DNA of 64,000 nucleotides from a virus (IMGVR_UViG_2778261631_000002); one strand, 5' to 3'; positions 6,600-49,263 are shown, numbered from the stretch's first letter. The notes: generated by a model from the letters alone, not told the origin. Numbers and translations: made by a program.

Positions 6600-6737
6600 A
6601 TGAACGCTTTTTTTCAGTTCCTGAGTGCATTTTTAGATGCGCCTATTATTAGCCAGATTCTGGCTATTATCCTCATCATCGTTTTGATTTTGCTTTTAAG
6701 GTCAGTAAAAAATGGAATTATGCACTGGCTTACTTAA
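6600..6737 (+). CDS. Small hydrophobic protein, 45 aa, single predicted TM helix (MNAFFQFLSAFLDAPIISQILAIILIIVLILLLRSVKNGIMHWLT)
   Basis: ATG with AAGGA RBS 9 nt upstream; sits in an AT-rich convergent intergenic region; below the 60-aa ORF-track cutoff. Confidence 0.35.
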   Translation: MNAFFQFLSAFLDAPIISQILAIILIIVLILLLRSVKNGIMHWLT

Positions 6738-6756
6738 TGTTTCAGTGAAACATTAA
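6734..6756. repeat. Perfect 23-bp palindrome TTAATGTTTCA-G-TGAAACATTAA straight after the small ORF stop
   Basis: Exact 11-bp inverted repeat with a 1-nt centre; no flanking U-run, so more likely a protein-binding site than a terminator. Confidence 0.4.
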
Positions 6757-6812
6757 AATCTCCTTGATGTGGAAACAATCATTTTCTGTATGTGCTGGTG
6801 GGCACCTGTAGT

Positions 6813-7175
6813 TCAGCTTTCGTTGGCATTTAACTTCGTCTTTGCTTTCTCCACCAGCAACTTCCAGATGCCTATTTCATTAGCAGCCGCCTTGATGGCG
6901 GCATAAAAAGCATCTTGCTGATCGTAACGCTGGATCTGTTTTTTCAGTTTTGCCTCCACCAATTTAATTTCATTACGTGCTTTCTGAAGCCGCATCACCG
7001 CCCGGTTACATCTGTTCTTGTATAGCGTGTTAATCTCTGACAATTGCTTTAATTTACCAGCCTGACTGCGGATTATCGCCTCCCTGGCTTCTGCCGTGCG
7101 TCTCATCTGATCTCTTAAGAGTTCACCGTTTTCGATAATTCTTTCAAGGTGTTTGATGTGATCTGCAACTCTCAT
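6813..7175 (-). CDS. Hypothetical coiled-coil protein (120 aa)
   Basis: Last gene of a minus-strand operon; overlaps the upstream gene. Confidence 0.6.
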   Translation of the reverse strand: MRVADHIKHLERIIENGELLRDQMRRTAEAREAIIRSQAGKLKQLSEINTLYKNRCNRAVMRLQKARNEIKLVEAKLKKQIQRYDQQDAFYAAIKAAANEIGIWKLLVEKAKTKLNANES

Positions 7176-8470
7176 ACTTCACCCTCGCTTGTATCACCAG
7201 CGTCCACCAACGACAATAAAGCCCTGGCCATCTTATGAACCAACAGTGCATCAATAATGCCAAGCGTATGCCCCGGCTTAATGTTTAATGCTGCCTCAAG
7301 ATGACACCTTTCCAGACCGCTTTTCTCGGCTTGTTTATGATGATATGGCGTAATAACGTCGCCCAAAACACGGCTAATTCTTTCTCGTAATTGCTGGGTG
7401 CCAGCACACTTGATCGCTGTATCGTGGAGACGGTTAACCAGTTCGCGATAAACATGCGGCTTAATGCGGATACGTTCACCGGTGACGCCCTTTCCTGGCG
7501 CTGGCACCGAACTATCCGGAATATCCGGATAGTTGCCAGCCTCGTAAGCTACCCGCAGCCAGTGCATGAATGTTTCAGTGGACACACAACCACAGTCCAC
7601 ATCGATTTTCCCGCGTTGCTGTTCCAGCCATTGCCCAAAATCCAACCTGTAAGTCTTACTTTGGCTTACAGGTTGGCTACCCTGAAGCATGGCAGCGTGG
7701 CAGGCATACTCAACGCCCTTAACTGCATCTGCGCAGTAGTTATAGCGATTGCATTCCACTAATTTCCGTTTGAGTTTTTCAATTGCCTGCGCGACATCAG
7801 CCTGTATTACAGGAACTGGCGGAACGGCTGTTTGCTCTCGAACGTCATTAGTCGCTATCGGTTCTGCTGCCAACTGACTGGCATATTTGTTAATGGTAAC
7901 GATAAGCTCTTGCTCAGCCTCATCCAGACAATCACCGATACCTCGCCTGTCACCGTCAAAATCATCGAAATCGGCACGAATCTTGGCAACCTTCAGGATT
8001 GCGGACAACACCTCACTAGGAATTACCGGATAGTTGGTTGACGTTTCCGCGATTTCCCGAAAATTATTGGTTGACGAATTCTTGTTTTCCCGAAAGTTTC
8101 CGGACTGAAGCATGGCGGCGCGGCAGGCGTTCCAGCCATCTGCGTAACAATCTCTGTGTGTCTTGAAATATGTCACCGCCCTTGGTACATCGTTTACGTC
8201 TATTTCATCCGGCACAACCGGCGCAGGTGAGTCAGCATAAACAGGAATAACGTCCGGTTGCTCTTTATTGCTTTCATCCGTTAAAGCCCAGAATAATTTC
8301 CCGGCCGGATGTTTGAAAATATAAGCAACTGGTTCTGCTTCCAGCGATGCCAGAGCAATTCGTGCCAGTTCTTCCGCTTCTTCTGCTGGCAGTACAACGT
8401 TGCTACCAGGTCCGTATGTTTCGCGCCACTGCTTGATTGTCAGTAGTCGCTCTTTGGTAATAGTGATCAT
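7172..8470 (-). CDS. Hypothetical protein (432 aa) with an internally duplicated Cys motif
   Basis: Two copies of CYADGWNACRAAMLQSG / CADAVKGVEYACHAAMLQGS-like segments. Confidence 0.6.
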   Translation of the reverse strand: MITITKERLLTIKQWRETYGPGSNVVLPAEEAEELARIALASLEAEPVAYIFKHPAGKLFWALTDESNKEQPDVIPVYADSPAPVVPDEIDVNDVPRAVTYFKTHRDCYADGWNACRAAMLQSGNFRENKNSSTNNFREIAETSTNYPVIPSEVLSAILKVAKIRADFDDFDGDRRGIGDCLDEAEQELIVTINKYASQLAAEPIATNDVREQTAVPPVPVIQADVAQAIEKLKRKLVECNRYNYCADAVKGVEYACHAAMLQGSQPVSQSKTYRLDFGQWLEQQRGKIDVDCGCVSTETFMHWLRVAYEAGNYPDIPDSSVPAPGKGVTGERIRIKPHVYRELVNRLHDTAIKCAGTQQLRERISRVLGDVITPYHHKQAEKSGLERCHLEAALNIKPGHTLGIIDALLVHKMARALLSLVDAGDTSEGEV

Positions 8471-29416: not shown

Positions 29417-30318
29417 TGCTTAGCCTCTCCACCAAGGGCATTTACCAGAGCATCAACCAGGCACGAAATTTCACTGGTCAACAGGAAGAAATCTGCGTCC
29501 AGTCGCTGCGCAACATCTTCACTATCAATATCAGAGTTCTGCTCAAGCAATTCATCCGCAAATTTGACGCTGGTAAGGCTGAAGTTATGGTCCAGTGTAA
29601 ATTTAATGCGGTTCTGCCAGTCGAGTGCCAACTTAGTGACGAGCTTGCCAGCTTCCAGGTGTGTGGAAATTTCATCGCTTCCCAAATCCTGCTTTTTCAC
29701 TCGGGCAATACCGCCATCCTCAAGCACTGCCTTAAGTTCTGCCGCATCCCCCATTTGAAATCCCTGTGGAGCACTACCATCACGTACCCAGTCGGTCAGC
29801 GTTAACTCAATGGGATTTTCAACACTTAGGGGAACAACAGGAAGAGAACCCAGAGATTTACGCATAAGCGCGAGCATATCCTCTGCCTGCCGCGCGCTGG
29901 CATTGATATAGATACGTTTAGTTGAACCGTCGTAGATCGCCTGGATAACAGAAAACTTTGAAAAAGCCCGTGGCAGAAGAGAATGCAGAACTTCGTCTTT
30001 CAGGGAGTCCTTCTCTGTTTTCTTCAGTTTACGCGCTTGTTCTTGCTCAAGTTTTTCAATTTTTTCTTGAATAGCTCGCTGGATAACCGGCGGGGGAAGA
30101 ATTTTTGTTTCGCGCTTTGCTTCAACAAGGATAAAACCATTTCCATGCATAGCGATAACTTCGGAATTATCACCAAATGGCGATACAAAACCGAACTTGG
30201 CCATATCCTGACTACCGCATGGTGTGAAAAGGATCATTTTCTTTTTATCTTCTAAGTCGGTCAGATCCGCCTCACGAGAAAGTTTATAAATAGTAATATT
30301 TTTCCAGTGCTTAAACAT
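29413..30318 (-). CDS. hrdC: RdgC homolog (recombination-associated protein), start taken at [13 protein letters not shown]
   Basis: High similarity along the length to E. coli RdgC (...[10 protein letters not shown]...[22 protein letters not shown]...LGGEA...). Confidence 0.75.
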
Positions 30319-30667
30319 GTTGTAACCCTTGAATATCAACCACAGAAAGCTCGTCTTTATAGAAAAAGGCCAAGTTGTGGCACCCCCTCGTTTGAGCGTA
30401 TGAGCTGGGACCAATTTCGTTCTTCCAGACAAATGGCTTCAAATCCGTACGGCGAAGCATAAAAACGCGATTTGTTCCGCTCTGATTCCCAATGAGGCAA
30501 AAGCCTTCTTTCACCTTGATAGCCTGCAAGTTGTCGAGTTCACCGCTGGTTACACGGCTATCGAACTCCTTGCGGCTTATTAGCTCCATCTGCATCTGAC
30601 GACTCCAAACAAATGCCCATTGAAGGGCGATGGCTGAATGGTACCGAAAACACGATATAAAAAACAA
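30311..30667 (-). CDS. Hypothetical protein upstream of hrdC (start uncertain, possibly the internal MQMELIS)
   Basis: First ORF after the C1 operator at 30667. Confidence 0.45.
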
Positions 30668-41698: not shown

Positions 41699-42208
41699 AT
41701 GGGGCACAATAACACTAAGGGAAACCGTAAATTTATTAAGGGCCGCTATACTGCCAACGCGGCCAAAGGCGAACGACTGGTATCTTCTGAATTCCAGCTC
41801 ACTTTTGCAGGCCATGAAGATATCAGCGTACTGGTTCGCACGTCGCAAATTCCTGAAATGACCCGCGAGGATGTGGAGGACTATGGTCCGAATGGTGTGA
41901 AGTTCAACCAGCACGGTCCAATTCGAAACTCTGGGGAAATCCAGGTCCAGTGCGTGGAGACTATCGAAGGCGATATTCTTCAGTTCATTAAAGATCGCAT
42001 TGCGGCGAAGGACTATGTTGATATCACGATGGCTGCTACCCCTGAATCCAAATCTTCCGGGGTTAACGCTGTGACAAAAGCTGCTACAACAATTGAAATG
42101 TTGGACTGCAAAATCTACAGTGATGCAATCGACTTTAGTACCGAAGATGTGACTGCCGCTGTGCGCCCGTCACTTCGTATCGTCTACAACTGGATTGAGT
42201 GGGATTAA
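41699..42208 (+). CDS. Tail tube-like protein candidate (169 aa)
   Basis: Size and position typical of myovirus tube proteins; tentative. Confidence 0.45.
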   Translation: MGHNNTKGNRKFIKGRYTANAAKGERLVSSEFQLTFAGHEDISVLVRTSQIPEMTREDVEDYGPNGVKFNQHGPIRNSGEIQVQCVETIEGDILQFIKDRIAAKDYVDITMAATPESKSSGVNAVTKAATTIEMLDCKIYSDAIDFSTEDVTAAVRPSLRIVYNWIEWD

Positions 42209-42238
42209 GTGTTATCCCTTGTACTTTTAATCTTCTTC

Positions 42239-42259
42239 GGGGGAGGTTTACCTCCCCTT
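42239..42259 (+). terminator. Stem-loop at the boundary of the AT-rich island (weak U-run)
   Basis: GGGGAGG-TTTA-CCTCCCC. Confidence 0.4.
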
Positions 42260-42505
42260 GATACAACCGCATTCCACCGCCTAGCGAATAGAGTAAAATA
42301 ACATCTTGTAAATACTCTGGTATGAAGTGAGTGTAAACTAACAGTTACCTATTAATAAATACTCCTATACTTTTCTACCTTAAATATTTAGTATGCACAT
42401 GGTTAAATTTATGTAGCGTCAAAGTTTGTGAAGGCAAGATGTCCGTTAATCTTTGTCGAAGCATATATGGTTCTAGGAAGTATTGGCTTATTTAAGAGGA
42501 ATGTC

Positions 42506-43498
42506 ATGTTACGTATCAATGATATGAGCAATATTATTGTAGGTATTTACAGCAAAAAAAATGAAGAAAAATCATTTGAGTATATGTACTCTTATCTGAC
42601 AAGGAAAACAGCTTATTTAACACGTGAGTTTATTCGTGATGGTAATCAGGATAAAGAATTATTAAAAAATACCTATATAGAAGCATTGTCTTGGCTTTTT
42701 GCAATCTGTGATAAACTTGAAATACAACCACAGGAAGCATTTTATAAAAAATTTCCTAGTTGCTGTCCTTATTGCTTAGGGGCGCCTTGTTCCTGTTCTC
42801 AAACACACAGAAAGCCAGAGAAAATAAGAAGCGCAAAAGGAATTAAAGATGAGCTTTTCAATAAATATAACGCTATTAAACCTATGCAATTTCCGCCTTA
42901 TGCGCCACGAATGATTAATGACATCTATCCGTCGAATAGAACCATTTGGTCTACTTTTGGTGGGTTTTATCATTCATCCAGGTTATTCGAAGAGTTGGGT
43001 GAGTTGCAAGAGGCTTATGCTAAATCAATTGAAGATAAAAATTACAACAAAGAAAATCTTCATGAAGAGTGTGCTGATATATATGCTTGGTTGTTTTCTT
43101 TATGGGGGATTATTTTTAAAGATGATGATCTTGGCGAGGCGTTTGAAAGTTATTATCTAAATGGTTGTCCTGTCTGCAATAAAAGAGAATGTGTTTGTGT
43201 CAGTTATTCAGGGAAGATTAGTAAAACTGATGAGAAAAGAGCATCATTGGAAAAACTTAAACAAGAGTTAGAACTTCTCTTGAAGGATGAGACGACAGGT
43301 GAGTTTAAGGAGAATTTAGAGTCTGCTATATCTGCAATTAAAGATGCGATAGACTCAGGAAAAGATGCAGATAGCAGAAGAACTTTATCGGAAGTCGAAA
43401 GTGTTCTTGACTCAATCGAAAAAAATTCAGCCAAGATGTCTAGTGTGGCAAGTAACGCCCTTAATGTTTTTAATGTAATCAGTAAGTTATTCCAATAA
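42506..43498 (+). CDS. MazG-like NTP-pyrophosphohydrolase-fold protein with two Cys clusters and C-terminal coiled coil (330 aa from ATG 42506; alternative ATG at 42467)
   Basis: FEELGELQEAYAKS...HEECADIYAWLFSLWG matches the EExxE / EExxD helices of MazG/HisE-type all-alpha NTP-PPases; CCPYCLGAPCSC and CPVCNKRECVC clusters; strongly AT-rich codon usage unlike its neighbours. Confidence 0.6.
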   Translation: MLRINDMSNIIVGIYSKKNEEKSFEYMYSYLTRKTAYLTREFIRDGNQDKELLKNTYIEALSWLFAICDKLEIQPQEAFYKKFPSCCPYCLGAPCSCSQTHRKPEKIRSAKGIKDELFNKYNAIKPMQFPPYAPRMINDIYPSNRTIWSTFGGFYHSSRLFEELGELQEAYAKSIEDKNYNKENLHEECADIYAWLFSLWGIIFKDDDLGEAFESYYLNGCPVCNKRECVCVSYSGKISKTDEKRASLEKLKQELELLLKDETTGEFKENLESAISAIKDAIDSGKDADSRRTLSEVESVLDSIEKNSAKMSSVASNALNVFNVISKLFQ

Positions 43499-43505
43499 TG
43501 GTGCC

Positions 43506-43550
43506 CACCGGTTTGTTAGAAAATGAACCGGTGTTGTATTATTTATTATT
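43506..43550 (+). terminator. Rho-independent terminator after the MazG-like gene
   Basis: CACCGGTT-loop-AACCGGTG followed by a T-rich run. Confidence 0.6.
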
Positions 43551-43852
43551 AAATTAATTTTAATCCTAATAGATGGATGTTTGTTGTGGATATAATTTGT
43601 TTAAGTTTTAGGTGTATTTTTCCATATATAATCTAGGTGGTATTAGCGAAGCAAGTATGGAATTTTGTTAACAGCTAGATATTTCTGAAAGTCATCATGT
43701 CGCGAAGGCTATTGGGAGATATGGTCTGAATCTTTGCATGATGTGAAATAACTCCTTCTACTTCATTGTGTTTTACACTATTGGGGAGAAAAGGGTGCAT
43801 TGAGGTTACCAGACACACGAAGAGTGGCGGGGATCACTCCCCGCCAGGTCTC

Positions 43853-44008
43853 TTACCTTTCAGATTCGTAGGCTGTGAAGACAGTGACCTCCGTCTGGCC
43901 GGTTCGGATTCGTACCTCGCAGAGGTCTTTCCTCGTTACCAGTGCCGTCACAATGACGGTTAAACAGATGACGATCAGAGCGATTAACATCGCTTTTTGC
44001 TGCTTCAT
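43853..44008 (-). CDS. hok: Hok/Gef-family type I toxin, 51 aa (MKQQKAMLIALIVICLTVIVTALVTRKDLCEVRIRTGQTEVTVFTAYESER)
   Basis: Near-identity in pattern to HokC/Gef (MKQHKAMIVALIVICITAVVAALVTRKDLCEVHIRTGQTEVAVFTAYESE); AGGAG RBS; below the ORF-track size cutoff. Confidence 0.8.
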   Translation of the reverse strand: MKQQKAMLIALIVICLTVIVTALVTRKDLCEVRIRTGQTEVTVFTAYESER

Positions 44009-44066
44009 AGCCTGCTTCTCCTTGACCTTTTGGTCGGTAAGAGGCTAATCTACGTATGCTAAGCAT
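43860..44066 (-). CDS. mok: mok-like overlapping reading frame (68 codons) coupling hok translation
   Basis: ORF in a different frame starting upstream of and overlapping hok, the canonical hok/mok/sok arrangement. Confidence 0.5.
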   Translation of the reverse strand: MLSIRRLASYRPKGQGEAGYEAAKSDVNRSDRHLFNRHCDGTGNEERPLRGTNPNRPDGGHCLHSLRI

Positions 44067-44090
44067 AGATATGGCCTCAGATTAATGTTA
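44010..44090 (+). ncRNA. sok: Predicted Sok-like antisense RNA region (boundaries not determined)
   Basis: By analogy with hok/sok loci the antisense RNA is antisense to the mok start region; TTGACC -35-like hexamer at about 44023 on the plus strand. Confidence 0.3.
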
Positions 44091-44189
44091 AGCGTCTTGC
44101 AGGACGCGTAATGTTATCTGGGGCTTTCTTCTATCTGCTTTTCGGGTCATGCCTGAAGCAGATAGCCTCAAGCACCCGCAACGATTGTA

Positions 44190-44516
44190 TCAATGTCTGG
44201 CTTTTTTTCTATAGAAATCACCTGGAAGGGTGAATATCCACATCAGAAGAAATGTTGCAGCAAACATGATCCCTAATGGCCAGACCGCGCCAAAGAAAAT
44301 CCATACTAAGATCTCCTCTGCTCGTTCTTTGCGGTCGATATCGACAAGCATTTTTCGGCTGATCATGTATACACAGAAGCCAATACAAACATATCCTGCA
44401 AAAGCGATCGCTAACTGTAAAAAATCAGATTGCATCTCCGACCTCAAACTGAAAACGCCAGGTGACTCCAGATTAGAGCAATCTATCACCCCCTGAATCC
44501 TGCCGGTATACCCCAT
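44190..44516 (-). CDS. Small membrane protein (two predicted TM segments; start uncertain, possibly the internal MQSDFLQ)
   Basis: Hydrophobic stretches; overlaps the repL 3' end. Confidence 0.4.
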   Translation of the reverse strand: MGYTGRIQGVIDCSNLESPGVFSLRSEMQSDFLQLAIAFAGYVCIGFCVYMISRKMLVDIDRKERAEEILVWIFFGAVWPLGIMFAATFLLMWIFTLPGDFYRKKARH

Positions 44517-47715: not shown

Positions 47716-47899
47716 AATTTGGGCGTAACGCGGTTTTACGGACACAAAAATACCGCAATATCGGATATCTGCGGCTGTCCGCACAATCATTCAGGCTGCT
47801 AAACCCGGTCGCAGAATTTGCTACGACGGCGAAACTATAAGCCTGAACGATTAAAAGGTCAATATGATGCAAAAAGATAGCATTCGCGACTTAAAAATA

Positions 47900-47916
47900 C
47901 AAATTTATTAGAGCAG
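47900..47916 (-). promoter_or_regulatory. C1 operator of the immI operon
   Basis: Minus strand TCTGCTCTAATAAATTT, 15/17. Confidence 0.55.
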
Positions 47917-48198
47917 ATTAGCGTCGTGCAATAGATATATTATTTGTGATGAAAAATAATGCAGAGGGATATTGTAACTTTAAGATGGATATCAATAGTC
48001 GATACATAAATTAAGTTAGCAATAAACTATTAACTTAAGAAATAATGCAGATGGTGAACTTGTCTCTGACTTTTCAGCTATACACAATAAGTTAGGGATA
48101 GCTTATAAAAAGTTGATTAATTGATATAAGTCAATGGGAGTATTCTTGTTTACTTTCCGTTCTCGTGGTAACTTCTCGCCGGTTTTTGTTTTTCTGGG

Positions 48199-48720
48199 AT
48201 GATTCTTATGTCTAAAAAGTATACTTTATGCGCTCTTGTTGTATCTGCAATTCTTCTTTCTGGGTGTCAATCTAGCGGTGCTGATTATGCTGCCGATGTT
48301 TATGATACCGCTCAATTGAATTCGAAGCAGGAAACAAAGACAGTCAATATTATCTCTGTGCTTCCAGCTAAAGTGAAAGTTGATAATAAAGCTAATAAAG
48401 AAGCGGCACAGACATTTGGTGCGGTACTGGGAGCTGTTGCTGGGGGCGTTGCCGGTTATAATGTTAAAGGCACATCGACACTGGGTGCTGTAGCTGGCGG
48501 TACTGGTGGTGCGGCTCTTGGTGCAGCGGCTGGTTCTTTGGTTAGTGATAAAACAATTGTTGAAGGTGTTTCACTGACTTATAAAGAAGGAACTAAGGTG
48601 TTCACTTCAACTCAAGTTGGTAAAGCATGCCAGTTTACAACGGGGCTTGCTGTGCTTATTTCAACTAAAGATAATGAAACTCGAATTCAGCCAAATGCTA
48701 CTTGTCCAGAAAAGAAATAA
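48199..48720 (+). CDS. Lipoprotein with glycine-zipper region (lipobox LLSGC), about 170 aa
   Basis: Signal peptide plus lipobox; GAVLGAVAGGVAGYNVKGTSTLGAVAGGTGGAALGAAAGS glycine-zipper-like segment. Confidence 0.6.
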   Translation: MILMSKKYTLCALVVSAILLSGCQSSGADYAADVYDTAQLNSKQETKTVNIISVLPAKVKVDNKANKEAAQTFGAVLGAVAGGVAGYNVKGTSTLGAVAGGTGGAALGAAAGSLVSDKTIVEGVSLTYKEGTKVFTSTQVGKACQFTTGLAVLISTKDNETRIQPNATCPEKK

Positions 48721-48723
48721 TTT

Positions 48724-49263
48724 ATGAATAAAATTATTTTATTTCTAATCTTTTCTACGTTTAGTGTAGGCACTGCCTTGGCTAACTCGTTGCAAAGTCA
48801 AATTGCTGCTATTGCTCAAGCGGAAAATGAAGGGCGAGCTAAAGAGCAGCAAGCTGAGGATGCCAGAAAAGAACTTATTCGCCAACAAGCACAAGCTGAA
48901 CGTATTAGAAGAGAAAAAGCAGCATCTGCCGCTGCTGCACGCGAAAAACAGCGTGTTGCTGCAGAAAATGAACGTAGAGCGAAACGAGAAGCCGAGCTAG
49001 CAAATGACAAGAAGCGAGATCAAGCTTATGAGGATGAGCTTCGCAAGCTGCAACTCGAAAGCATGAAACTCGAACTGCAAGCAAAAGCGGCTCGTGTCCA
49101 GCGAGAAAACGATTTTATAGAGCAGGAGTTGAAGGAGAGAGCAGCTAAGACAGATGTAATTCAGTCTGAGGCTGATGCAAATAGAAATATTTCTACAGGA
49201 AGTAAAGATTTACTGCAAAGCGAAGGAAAAGCTAGAGAGAAGAAAGCTAGCAGTTGGTGGTAG
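48724..49263 (+). CDS. Secreted/periplasmic coiled-coil protein rich in Ala/Glu/Arg/Lys (179 aa)
   Basis: N-terminal signal peptide MNKIILFLIFSTFSVGTALA then charged helical repeats (TolA-like composition). Confidence 0.55.
   Translation: MNKIILFLIFSTFSVGTALANSLQSQIAAIAQAENEGRAKEQQAEDARKELIRQQAQAERIRREKAASAAAAREKQRVAAENERRAKREAELANDKKRDQAYEDELRKLQLESMKLELQAKAARVQRENDFIEQELKERAAKTDVIQSEADANRNISTGSKDLLQSEGKAREKKASSWW

Follow-up and report, generated by a model that had tools for sequence, protein, structure and literature searches.

The 64,000-nucleotide (nt) contig IMGVR_UViG_2778261631_000002, here called the window (the whole stretch of DNA analysed, at its full length), is a P1-like (IncY) phage-plasmid. 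It carries an AT-rich insert of ~1.56 kb whose only open reading frame (ORF) encodes a protein of 330 amino acids (aa). That this protein is a single-chain pseudo-dimer with the all-alpha (MazG/dimeric-dUTPase-type) nucleoside triphosphate (NTP) pyrophosphohydrolase fold, with both duplicated helix-pair halves packed into a single bundle, is strongly supported. We infer from the sequence one complete predicted metal site and two structural zinc sites per chain. Because its relatives occupy temperate-phage cargo slots and are fused to known immune domains, the inserted gene appears to be a good candidate for a new anti-phage gene. The resemblance to MazG is already known and is reflected in the name given by PGAP. 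The tandem pseudo-dimer, the twin zinc knuckles, the variable tail, the spread through cargo slots and the immune-domain fusions were not found described, and a literature search over 8 million full texts returned no paper on WP_000944483 or this protein.

Fold, internal duplication and predicted metal site

The gene and the parts of its product are as follows.

42506-43498, + strand: ORF of 330 aa (WP_000944483.1), the sole ORF of the insert, named "MazG-like family protein" by PGAP
42512-42814, + strand: N-terminal MazG-like half, catalytically degenerate (residues 3-103; T, R and K replace the EExxE positions)
42764-42796, + strand: Cys4 knuckle 1 (C87-P-Y-C90-x4-C95-x-C97)
42890-43216, + strand: C-terminal MazG-like half with the full acidic set (residues 129-237; from hhalign, the PDB profile search and phrog_2245)
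42989-43078, + strand: predicted Mg2+ site (E162, E163 and E166 of EExxE, E169, then E188 and D191 of ExxD)
43166-43198, + strand: Cys4 knuckle 2 (C221-P-V-C224-x4-C229-x-C231)
43226-43495, + strand: C-terminal four-helix domain (residues 241-330; AF2 helices 241-329, pLDDT 58-85)

The internal duplication is seen when residues 3-103 are aligned with residues 129-237 (hhalign probability 99.5%, E 2.9e-23, 101 columns). Both halves have the same layout: IY-x-x-N, a helix, a second helix ending in (S/A)W, and CPxC-x4-CxC. An AlphaFold2 (AF2) model built from the family alignment is all-helical (pLDDT 82.8, pTM 0.71), with lower pLDDT in both knuckle loops. A profile of 60 family members searched against the PDB matched 1vmg through the N-terminal half (E 6.2e-11) and 2q73 and 2q5z through the C-terminal half (~1e-4); the window protein alone gave weak matches to 2p06 and 1vmg. 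The 1vmg structure is SSO3215 of S. solfataricus, deposited as a MazG nucleotide pyrophosphohydrolase. The acidic residues of the window protein align with EEVGE...EELAD of 1vmg, and the motifs FEELGE and E188..D191..AW are present. Although no whole-chain match in the PDB was significant, Foldseek aligned the model to 1vmg with a TM-score of 0.85 normalised to the target, and in BFVD it matched phage NTP-pyrophosphatase (NTP-PPase)-like proteins with probabilities of 0.9-1.0. The helix-pair/four-helix-bundle fold of the superfamily is accompanied by EExxE...ExxD in the second half only.

Each residue of the acidic tetrad is kept in ~93-95% of ~170 aligned relatives, fused forms included; E169 is less conserved (119/167). 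In knuckle 1, C87 and C90 are found in 157/157 relatives, C95 in 156/158 and C97 in 155/157, and the knuckle 2 cysteines are found in 168-169/168-169. The Cys4 knuckles presumably bind zinc. The conserved metal site is our argument that the module would be an enzyme acting on nucleoside triphosphates. The only PDB matches of the C-terminal four-helix domain are designed helical bundles, and the domain is absent from short family forms of ~220-240 aa. These last 90 residues evolve about twice as fast as the core (dN, the nonsynonymous substitution rate, 0.22 vs 0.12).

The open reading frame and its family

The ORF is self-contained, with its own ribosome-binding site (AAGAGGA, 5 nt upstream of the ATG) and its own terminator, and its start is consistent with all homologues and with PGAP. 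The ratio of nonsynonymous to synonymous substitution rates (dN/dS) in the core is 0.04-0.09 in pairs with unsaturated synonymous sites, of which there were two or three, most pairs being saturated. The ORF is thus under purifying selection. The gene is more AT-rich than the host DNA in 12/12 loci checked (GC content 0.32-0.41 vs 0.42-0.63).

A word-indexed search of 5.8 billion proteins returned only 28 clusters, all of 329-378 aa. When 1.84 billion cluster representatives were searched exhaustively with a profile, 993 reached E ≤1e-3 and 101 reached ≤1e-30, and no architecture is more frequent in the best family matches than the solitary 330-aa form. Pfam MazG (PF03819) scores the window protein at 14.7 bits (E 0.037), below the 22-bit gathering cut-off, and some distant relatives pass this cut-off (P0142, 27.1 bits; P0159, 29.1 bits; P0137, 28.8 bits). 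Being sub-threshold, the window protein is placed in a separate family within the superfamily. It has no meaningful match in NCBIfam, so no specific family model there lies behind the PGAP name. It does match phrog_2245, an NTP pyrophosphohydrolase family (E 3.5e-6). PADLOC-DB v2.0.0 holds no model for the window protein, the sole match being a chance-level one to LmuB in the helical tail (E 0.015). The relatives L035, L036, L047, P0142, P0154 and P0171 gave no PADLOC match, and TIR-fused and kinase-fused relatives match PADLOC through the fused domain only.

Much of this bears on an earlier annotation of the DNA, made by a model without database searches (the original prediction). The 330-aa ORF that it drew at 42506-43498 is real, given the ribosome-binding site, the homologue-consistent start and the PGAP entry. 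It proposed a MazG-type helix pair with acidic motifs, which the family-profile match to 1vmg and the FEELGE and E188..D191 motifs bear out, and a degenerate second copy in the N-terminal half, which the hhalign result confirms. Its two zinc-ribbon-like Cys clusters are zinc-knuckle-like CPxC-x4-CxC motifs, ~99-100% conserved in relatives. For the C-terminal coiled coil that it proposed, the AF2 model shows four helices (residues 241-329) at lower confidence. The Pfam MazG search that it suggested gave a PF03819 score under threshold, and the family profile places the protein in the superfamily. It also recognised no named protein with this architecture, in keeping with the lack of a Pfam, NCBIfam or PADLOC model at threshold and of a paper.

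The P1 gene uhr (30314-30595, - strand) was considered as a relative and rejected, having no similarity to the island ORF. In the window, uhr is 100% identical to the reference; it is labelled "nucleoside triphosphate pyrophosphohydrolase" in RefSeq NC_005856 and is not MazG-like on inspection.

An AT-rich insert in a variable slot of P1-like phage-plasmids

The insert and its borders comprise the following features.

ends at 42208, + strand: bplB (labelled tail tube or baseplate), left neighbour of the island
42230-43790, no strand: AT-rich inserted cassette, the island proper (from GC content and the insertion relative to P1 MH422554)
42240-42257, + strand: perfect hairpin GGGGAGGT/ACCTCCCC, just 3' of the bplB stop at the left edge of the island
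42404-42448, + strand: upstream block, a candidate promoter region, with partial conservation in the P2-like carrier L008
43506-43533, + strand: intrinsic-terminator-like hairpin with a T-rich run after it, 8 nt past the ORF stop codon
44486-45331, - strand: repL, the right-hand gene

The sheath gene, gp21, pmgG and bplB lie on the + strand up to 42208, and the - strand side of the window holds hok/sok, a small membrane ORF, repL and kilA/ant genes. GC content is 0.30-0.37 at ~42200-43850 and 0.47-0.54 (~0.50) in the flanks, with a return to 0.45-0.49 past the right edge. In a genome alignment with P1 MH422554, which is without the insert, the ~1.56 kb insertion (42230-43790) stands where P1 has ~35 bp. 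The replaced ~35 bp contain the bplB terminator hairpin, for which the hairpin at 42240-42257 substitutes. A consensus promoter scan found nothing convincing at 42404-42448. Apart from this short upstream block, the DNA around the gene cannot be aligned between P1-like and P2-like carriers; thus, the mobile unit is essentially the gene itself. Direct repeats were searched for at the island junctions and not found, and there is therefore no transposon or att signature.

The insert is rare. It occurs in 16-17/707 PLSDB plasmid records that match the flanks (~97% are without it), in 0/91 flank-matching GenBank phage records, and in 19/5,426 complete E. coli genomes, where it is always plasmid-borne and always at least 99.6% identical. 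All plasmid and E. coli genome copies together are at least 99.5% identical. Ten IMG/VR contigs have an identical copy of the protein, and the IMG/VR scan gave only close relatives. This rarity and the near-identity of the copies indicate a single recent acquisition by one P1-like lineage. The bplB-repL gap is variable: reference P1 has rlfA (DUF3800), rlfB and pmgF there, SJ46 and 673R5 have an unrelated ORF of 171-210 aa, and RCS47 has a gap of similar size.

The original prediction had described an AT-rich island of ~2 kb (42230-44190), bounded by hairpins and next to a toxin-antitoxin locus, and took it for horizontally acquired cargo. The low GC content and the left-hand hairpin (42240-42257) stand. 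The alignment shortens the island to 1.56 kb ending at 43790, and the right-hand hairpin (44120-44176) falls within sok. The toxin-antitoxin locus is indeed present (hok/sok), but it is common to most P1-like plasmids and is no part of the island. The idea of acquired cargo in a variable slot agrees with its rarity among P1-likes, its AT-richness and the other genes held there by other P1-likes. The comparison of the slot across P1-like genomes, put forward as a check, likewise gave variable cargo with differing genes elsewhere and no conserved core P1 gene.

Domain fusions and membrane-protein partners

Fusions were counted over the best 150 representatives plus the genome loci. The partner is TIR, at either end of the module, in at least eight cases (TIR_2 matches up to E 1e-24), cytidine/dCMP deaminase in five, a Ser/Thr kinase in three and GGDEF in two. 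The single kinase scanned (P0145) matched PD-T4-6, a single-gene Ser/Thr-kinase defence system (E 6e-57), and mad6 (4e-63). Fused forms retain the catalytic and cysteine residues; the C-terminal helical domain is kept in some and absent in others.

Other relatives have a neighbour in place of a fused domain. In the enterobacterial clade with 53-55% identity, a homologous ~248-aa protein with two transmembrane (TM) helices is always encoded directly downstream (L005 9038-9805, L006 9080-9826, L010 9077-9823, also L029 and L048-L050). This partner also has a central coiled coil and no Pfam or PADLOC match. Loci in Pseudomonas, Melioribacter and Clostridia have non-homologous TM proteins directly downstream on the same strand. 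The window copy is without a downstream membrane partner, and no universal partner gene was found among 14 distant loci.

Downstream of the 79%-identical, P2-borne relative is a small hydrophobic ORF, MKFVIAGGFIIIFVMFKVFASKNIMRSFTNEKE (L008 9220-9321). The aligned position in the window (43658-43672) reads ATGGAATTTTGTTAA and reaches a stop after 4 codons. The window ATGGAATTTTGTTAA may be the remnant of a small membrane peptide or a chance occurrence.

A constant module paired with many alternative effector-like partners is what would be expected if the tandem module were mainly a nucleotide-binding sensor or switch and not the killing activity, with the effector coming from the fused domain or the neighbouring membrane protein. 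The recurrence of same-strand TM-protein genes directly downstream in unrelated lineages fits this too, as does the hydrophobic ORF of the P2-borne relative with its counterpart in the window interrupted after 4 codons. Having no partner, the P1-like copy would then be a minimal or partly decayed version. We regard the sensor role as quite unlikely and the decay of the P1-like copy, to the same degree, as hard to credit: the catalytic acidic residues are kept in ~93-95% of members, solitary ones included, the solitary 330-aa form is the commonest among the best matches and is under purifying selection, and the partners are not universal.

Genomic contexts of the relatives

Close relatives have 47-79% identity to the window protein. 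The 79%-identical one (L008) is carried by a P2-like phage, in the interval that separates gene S (tail completion) from gene V (spike). Further P2-like sites are the tail-fibre end of a Providencia prophage and a position beside a P2-like integrase. Four lambdoid prophages have the family gene between the replication genes and Q, and in Pectobacterium it is in a small chromosomal islet. On one contig it is ~700 bp from a complete DRT1 system (Drt1a, 2598 bits, plus Drt1b). Among 50,697 GenBank phage records the sole match is the 8,034-bp filamentous Vibrio phage PQ189347.1 (L047), in which the family member (6649-7641, ~12% of the inovirus genome) is located between the zot-like gene I and a regulator. 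The toxin genes of CTXphi are carried at the corresponding position.

With a narrow alignment as query, 15 loci were found in GTDB genomes, each species being represented by one. They are in Pseudomonas, Alcanivorax, Photobacterium, Aliivibrio, Paracoccus and Desulfobacterales, and in Thermodesulfovibrionia, Melioribacter, Chloroflexota, Cohnella and Clostridia. At two of them an integrase of the integron type is encoded upstream on the other strand, and the family is apparently carried in integron cassettes. One locus is two genes from Lamassu LmuB, another is beside an HNH effector-like gene, and one is near a TIR protein. Two adjoin thymidylate-kinase genes that match the PADLOC candidate PDC-M51B. 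In a Chloroflexota metagenome-assembled genome (MAG; L041 5962-11344), three thymidylate-kinase-like genes are interspersed with two tandem paralogues that join the MazG module to TIR. A Thermodesulfovibrionia MAG (L036 9956-11706) shows the pairing of the MazG module with Tmk in a second phylum.

Some of these contexts would suit an enzyme that works for the phage, either in counter-defence or in plain pro-phage nucleotide metabolism, by removing an alarmone, a signalling precursor or unwanted nucleotides during the development of the carrier. Precedents for such a role are Atd1, cyanophage MazG, T4 gp56 dCTPase and the dimeric dUTPases. The fold class is common to phage dUTPase and NTP-PPase proteins, Atd1 is a phage precedent for counter-defence, the lambdoid copies are in the early-right region and point the same way as the replication genes and Q, and thymidylate kinase and nrdAB are neighbours at some loci. 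We nevertheless consider this explanation unlikely. It does not account for the non-phage copies (in apparent integron cassettes, in chromosomal islets, and beside DRT1 and Lamassu), or for an 8-kb filamentous phage that holds the gene in its lysogenic-conversion cargo slot. The gene is also dispensable for P1-likes, because ~97% of matching plasmid records are without it, and being fused to TIR or to a PD-T4-6-type kinase is typically a mark of immunity proteins of hosts or prophages and not of anti-defence.

Carriage in integrons and in converting-phage slots fits any trait that benefits the host. The gene could then be a host-physiology moron unrelated to phages, which would modulate (p)ppGpp or clean up damaged NTPs and so improve stress or antibiotic tolerance, in line with the roles put forward for MazG of E. 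coli and for ImzA, a protein of an integron cassette. Membership in the MazG superfamily agrees with this, and higher aminoglycoside minimum inhibitory concentrations have been reported for a small MazG-like integron cassette. The sequence is, however, far from housekeeping MazG (14.7 vs 22 bits in Pfam), and the fusions to TIR, PD-T4-6-type kinase and deaminase and the DRT1 and Lamassu neighbours are left unexplained. This role seems to us improbable.

Proposed anti-phage role

Carriage as cargo in phages and apparently in integrons, AT bias, defence-gene neighbours and immune-domain fusions argue together for a role in conflict between elements. The original prediction had named both anti-phage defence by nucleotide depletion and counter-defence as options, and the context and fusions of the relatives favour defence over counter-defence. 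We therefore propose, as a reading with an even chance of being right, that the cassette is a self-contained moron encoding a prophage-borne, nucleotide-targeting anti-phage enzyme. The protein would be produced from the resident prophage or plasmid and act in conflict with other phages. During infection it would hydrolyse nucleoside triphosphates, either bulk (deoxy)nucleoside triphosphates ((d)NTPs) or a nucleotide specific to the invader, and replication of the invader would be starved or corrupted as a result. The C-terminal domain and the zinc knuckles might restrain the enzyme or set its specificity. In the literature, a preprint on PUA-Calcineurin-CE-HAD describes a MazG-like phosphoesterase that replaces the dNTP-depleting effector in some, rare systems, and DefensePredictor lists the MazG domain as a predicted, unvalidated defence domain.

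Several points weigh against an anti-phage enzyme. The defence-gene neighbourhood is a list of individual cases across four temperate phage types, anecdotal and not statistical, and PADLOC has no model for the window protein or for the relatives tested. Foldseek found no significant match for the whole chain in the PDB. The lambdoid copies are co-oriented with early lytic genes, which would suit the phage's own lytic growth, and Atd1 is a phage MazG-like protein with an anti-defence role. The thymidylate-kinase and nrdAB neighbours may point to plain nucleotide metabolism. Finally, an NTPase without regulation would be expected to be toxic, and the analysis turned up neither a regulator nor a trigger.

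More tentatively, and with rather low confidence, the window protein may be the first example of an undescribed, widely scattered immune family, in which the core occurs alone or with TIR, kinase, deaminase, GGDEF or membrane partners and would be a sensor-effector that recognises and destroys a nucleotide made by the infecting phage only. Within such a family the target might be, for example, a modified dNTP, instead of the bulk dNTP pool being depleted.

If the gene is an anti-phage enzyme, an all-alpha NTP pyrophosphohydrolase fold would join the enzymes that fight phages through the nucleotide pool, so far HD-dGTPases, deaminases and the PUA-Calcineurin-CE-HAD system of the recent preprint. 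The fusion partners suggest a reusable immunity unit, with ~1,000 cluster representatives in public data. If it serves counter-defence instead, it would be a new anti-defence tool common to very different temperate phages. The system is tractable: the gene is ~1 kb with a clear catalytic site, and the natural E. coli phage-plasmid that carries it also occurs in a form lacking it. The P1 bplB-repL and P2 gpS-gpV gaps are worth mining for more cargo. In the P2/P4 hotspot paper (Rousset et al., 2022), the P1 bplB-repL and P2 S-V slots are not among the named hotspots, and a term search for orf30 and gpV had no hits. Neither that paper nor the metagenomic-selection paper mentions MazG.

The hok/sok locus and other neighbouring features

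The DNA between the island and repL (43790-44190) has normal GC content and is a hok/sok type I toxin-antitoxin locus, with a Hok ORF and an overlapping sok antisense RNA at 43853-44177.

43853-44008, - strand: hok toxin gene, 51 aa, annotated hokD in identical plasmids
44003-44177, - strand: sok antisense RNA (Rfam RF01794, 113.9 bits vs a 59-bit cut-off)

The locus is found in hundreds of P1-like plasmids that are without the insert, i.e., in most P1-like plasmids. It is common P1-like plasmid backbone, outside the island, and its proximity therefore gives little information on the function of the ORF.

In six island-bearing P1-like plasmids (CP063732, NZ_MG196293, NZ_CP091040, NZ_CP020936, NZ_LR883966 and CP042641), IS421 (IS4 family) is inserted in the 3' hairpin of the hok transcript (window 43825-43846). 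The target duplication is 11 bp (GGATCACTCCC) at ~43830-43841, and the MazG-like ORF is untouched. IS421 was considered as the mobiliser of the island and rejected: it entered the hok 3' hairpin later, producing the 11-bp duplication there. The insertion may have altered hok mRNA stability.

Between sok and repL is a small ORF with hydrophobic stretches (44190-44516, - strand), labelled hypothetical. Its longest reading is 108 aa, and a homologous plasmid annotates 81 aa. It occupies the position of rlfA in reference P1, where the content of the slot differs. A second AT-rich patch (window 47750-48350, GC content 0.31-0.37) is located upstream of two ORFs, one for a lipoprotein-like protein of 173 aa (48199-48720) and one for a secreted coiled-coil protein of 179 aa (48724-49263).

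Comparison with known systems

MazG-type proteins (1vmg SSO3215, 2p06 AF_0060, 2q73 and E. coli MazG 3cra) share with the window protein the helix-pair/four-helix-bundle and EExxE...ExxD. In small MazG proteins, chains of ~100 aa, every one bearing a full site, assemble into homodimers or tetramers, whereas the window protein has two copies in one chain. It further differs from them in that its first copy is without the acidic residues, in a Cys4 knuckle per copy and in a helical domain of 90 aa. The dimeric dUTPases (staphylococcal phage Dut 5myd, C. jejuni 1w2y) are alike in fold only, with 7% identity, and unlike the window protein they lack both the Cys knuckles and a helical domain at the C-terminus. 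T4 gp56 dCTPase is a related phage enzyme grouped with the dimeric dUTPases.

A dGTPase and a dCTP deaminase are reportedly nucleotide-depleting anti-phage enzymes, and AvcD is said to be another. The proposed logic is alike, in that removal of (d)NTPs by a resident element blocks the phage, and some relatives of the window protein are fused to deaminases. HD-dGTPases and deaminases have no sequence or fold relation to the window protein. In the PUA-Calcineurin-CE-HAD system, a MazG-like domain is reported to replace Calcineurin-CE in rare PUA-HAD cases; neither PUA nor HAD accompanies the window gene. PD-T4-6 and TIR defence proteins (ThsB-like, PDC-S66) correspond to domains on the chains of distant relatives; the window protein has neither and is linked to them through these fusions only.

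Atd1 and cyanophage MazG, likened here by description, are phage pyrophosphatases of the MazG fold that act in phage-host conflict. They act in the opposite direction, aiding the phage, and the non-phage contexts of the family argue against that role here. The accessory genes of temperate coliphages are close in their mode of carriage. Prophage accessory genes of this kind include old, tin and fun of P2. The insert of the window is likewise AT-rich and self-contained, with a single gene, and occupies a variable slot.

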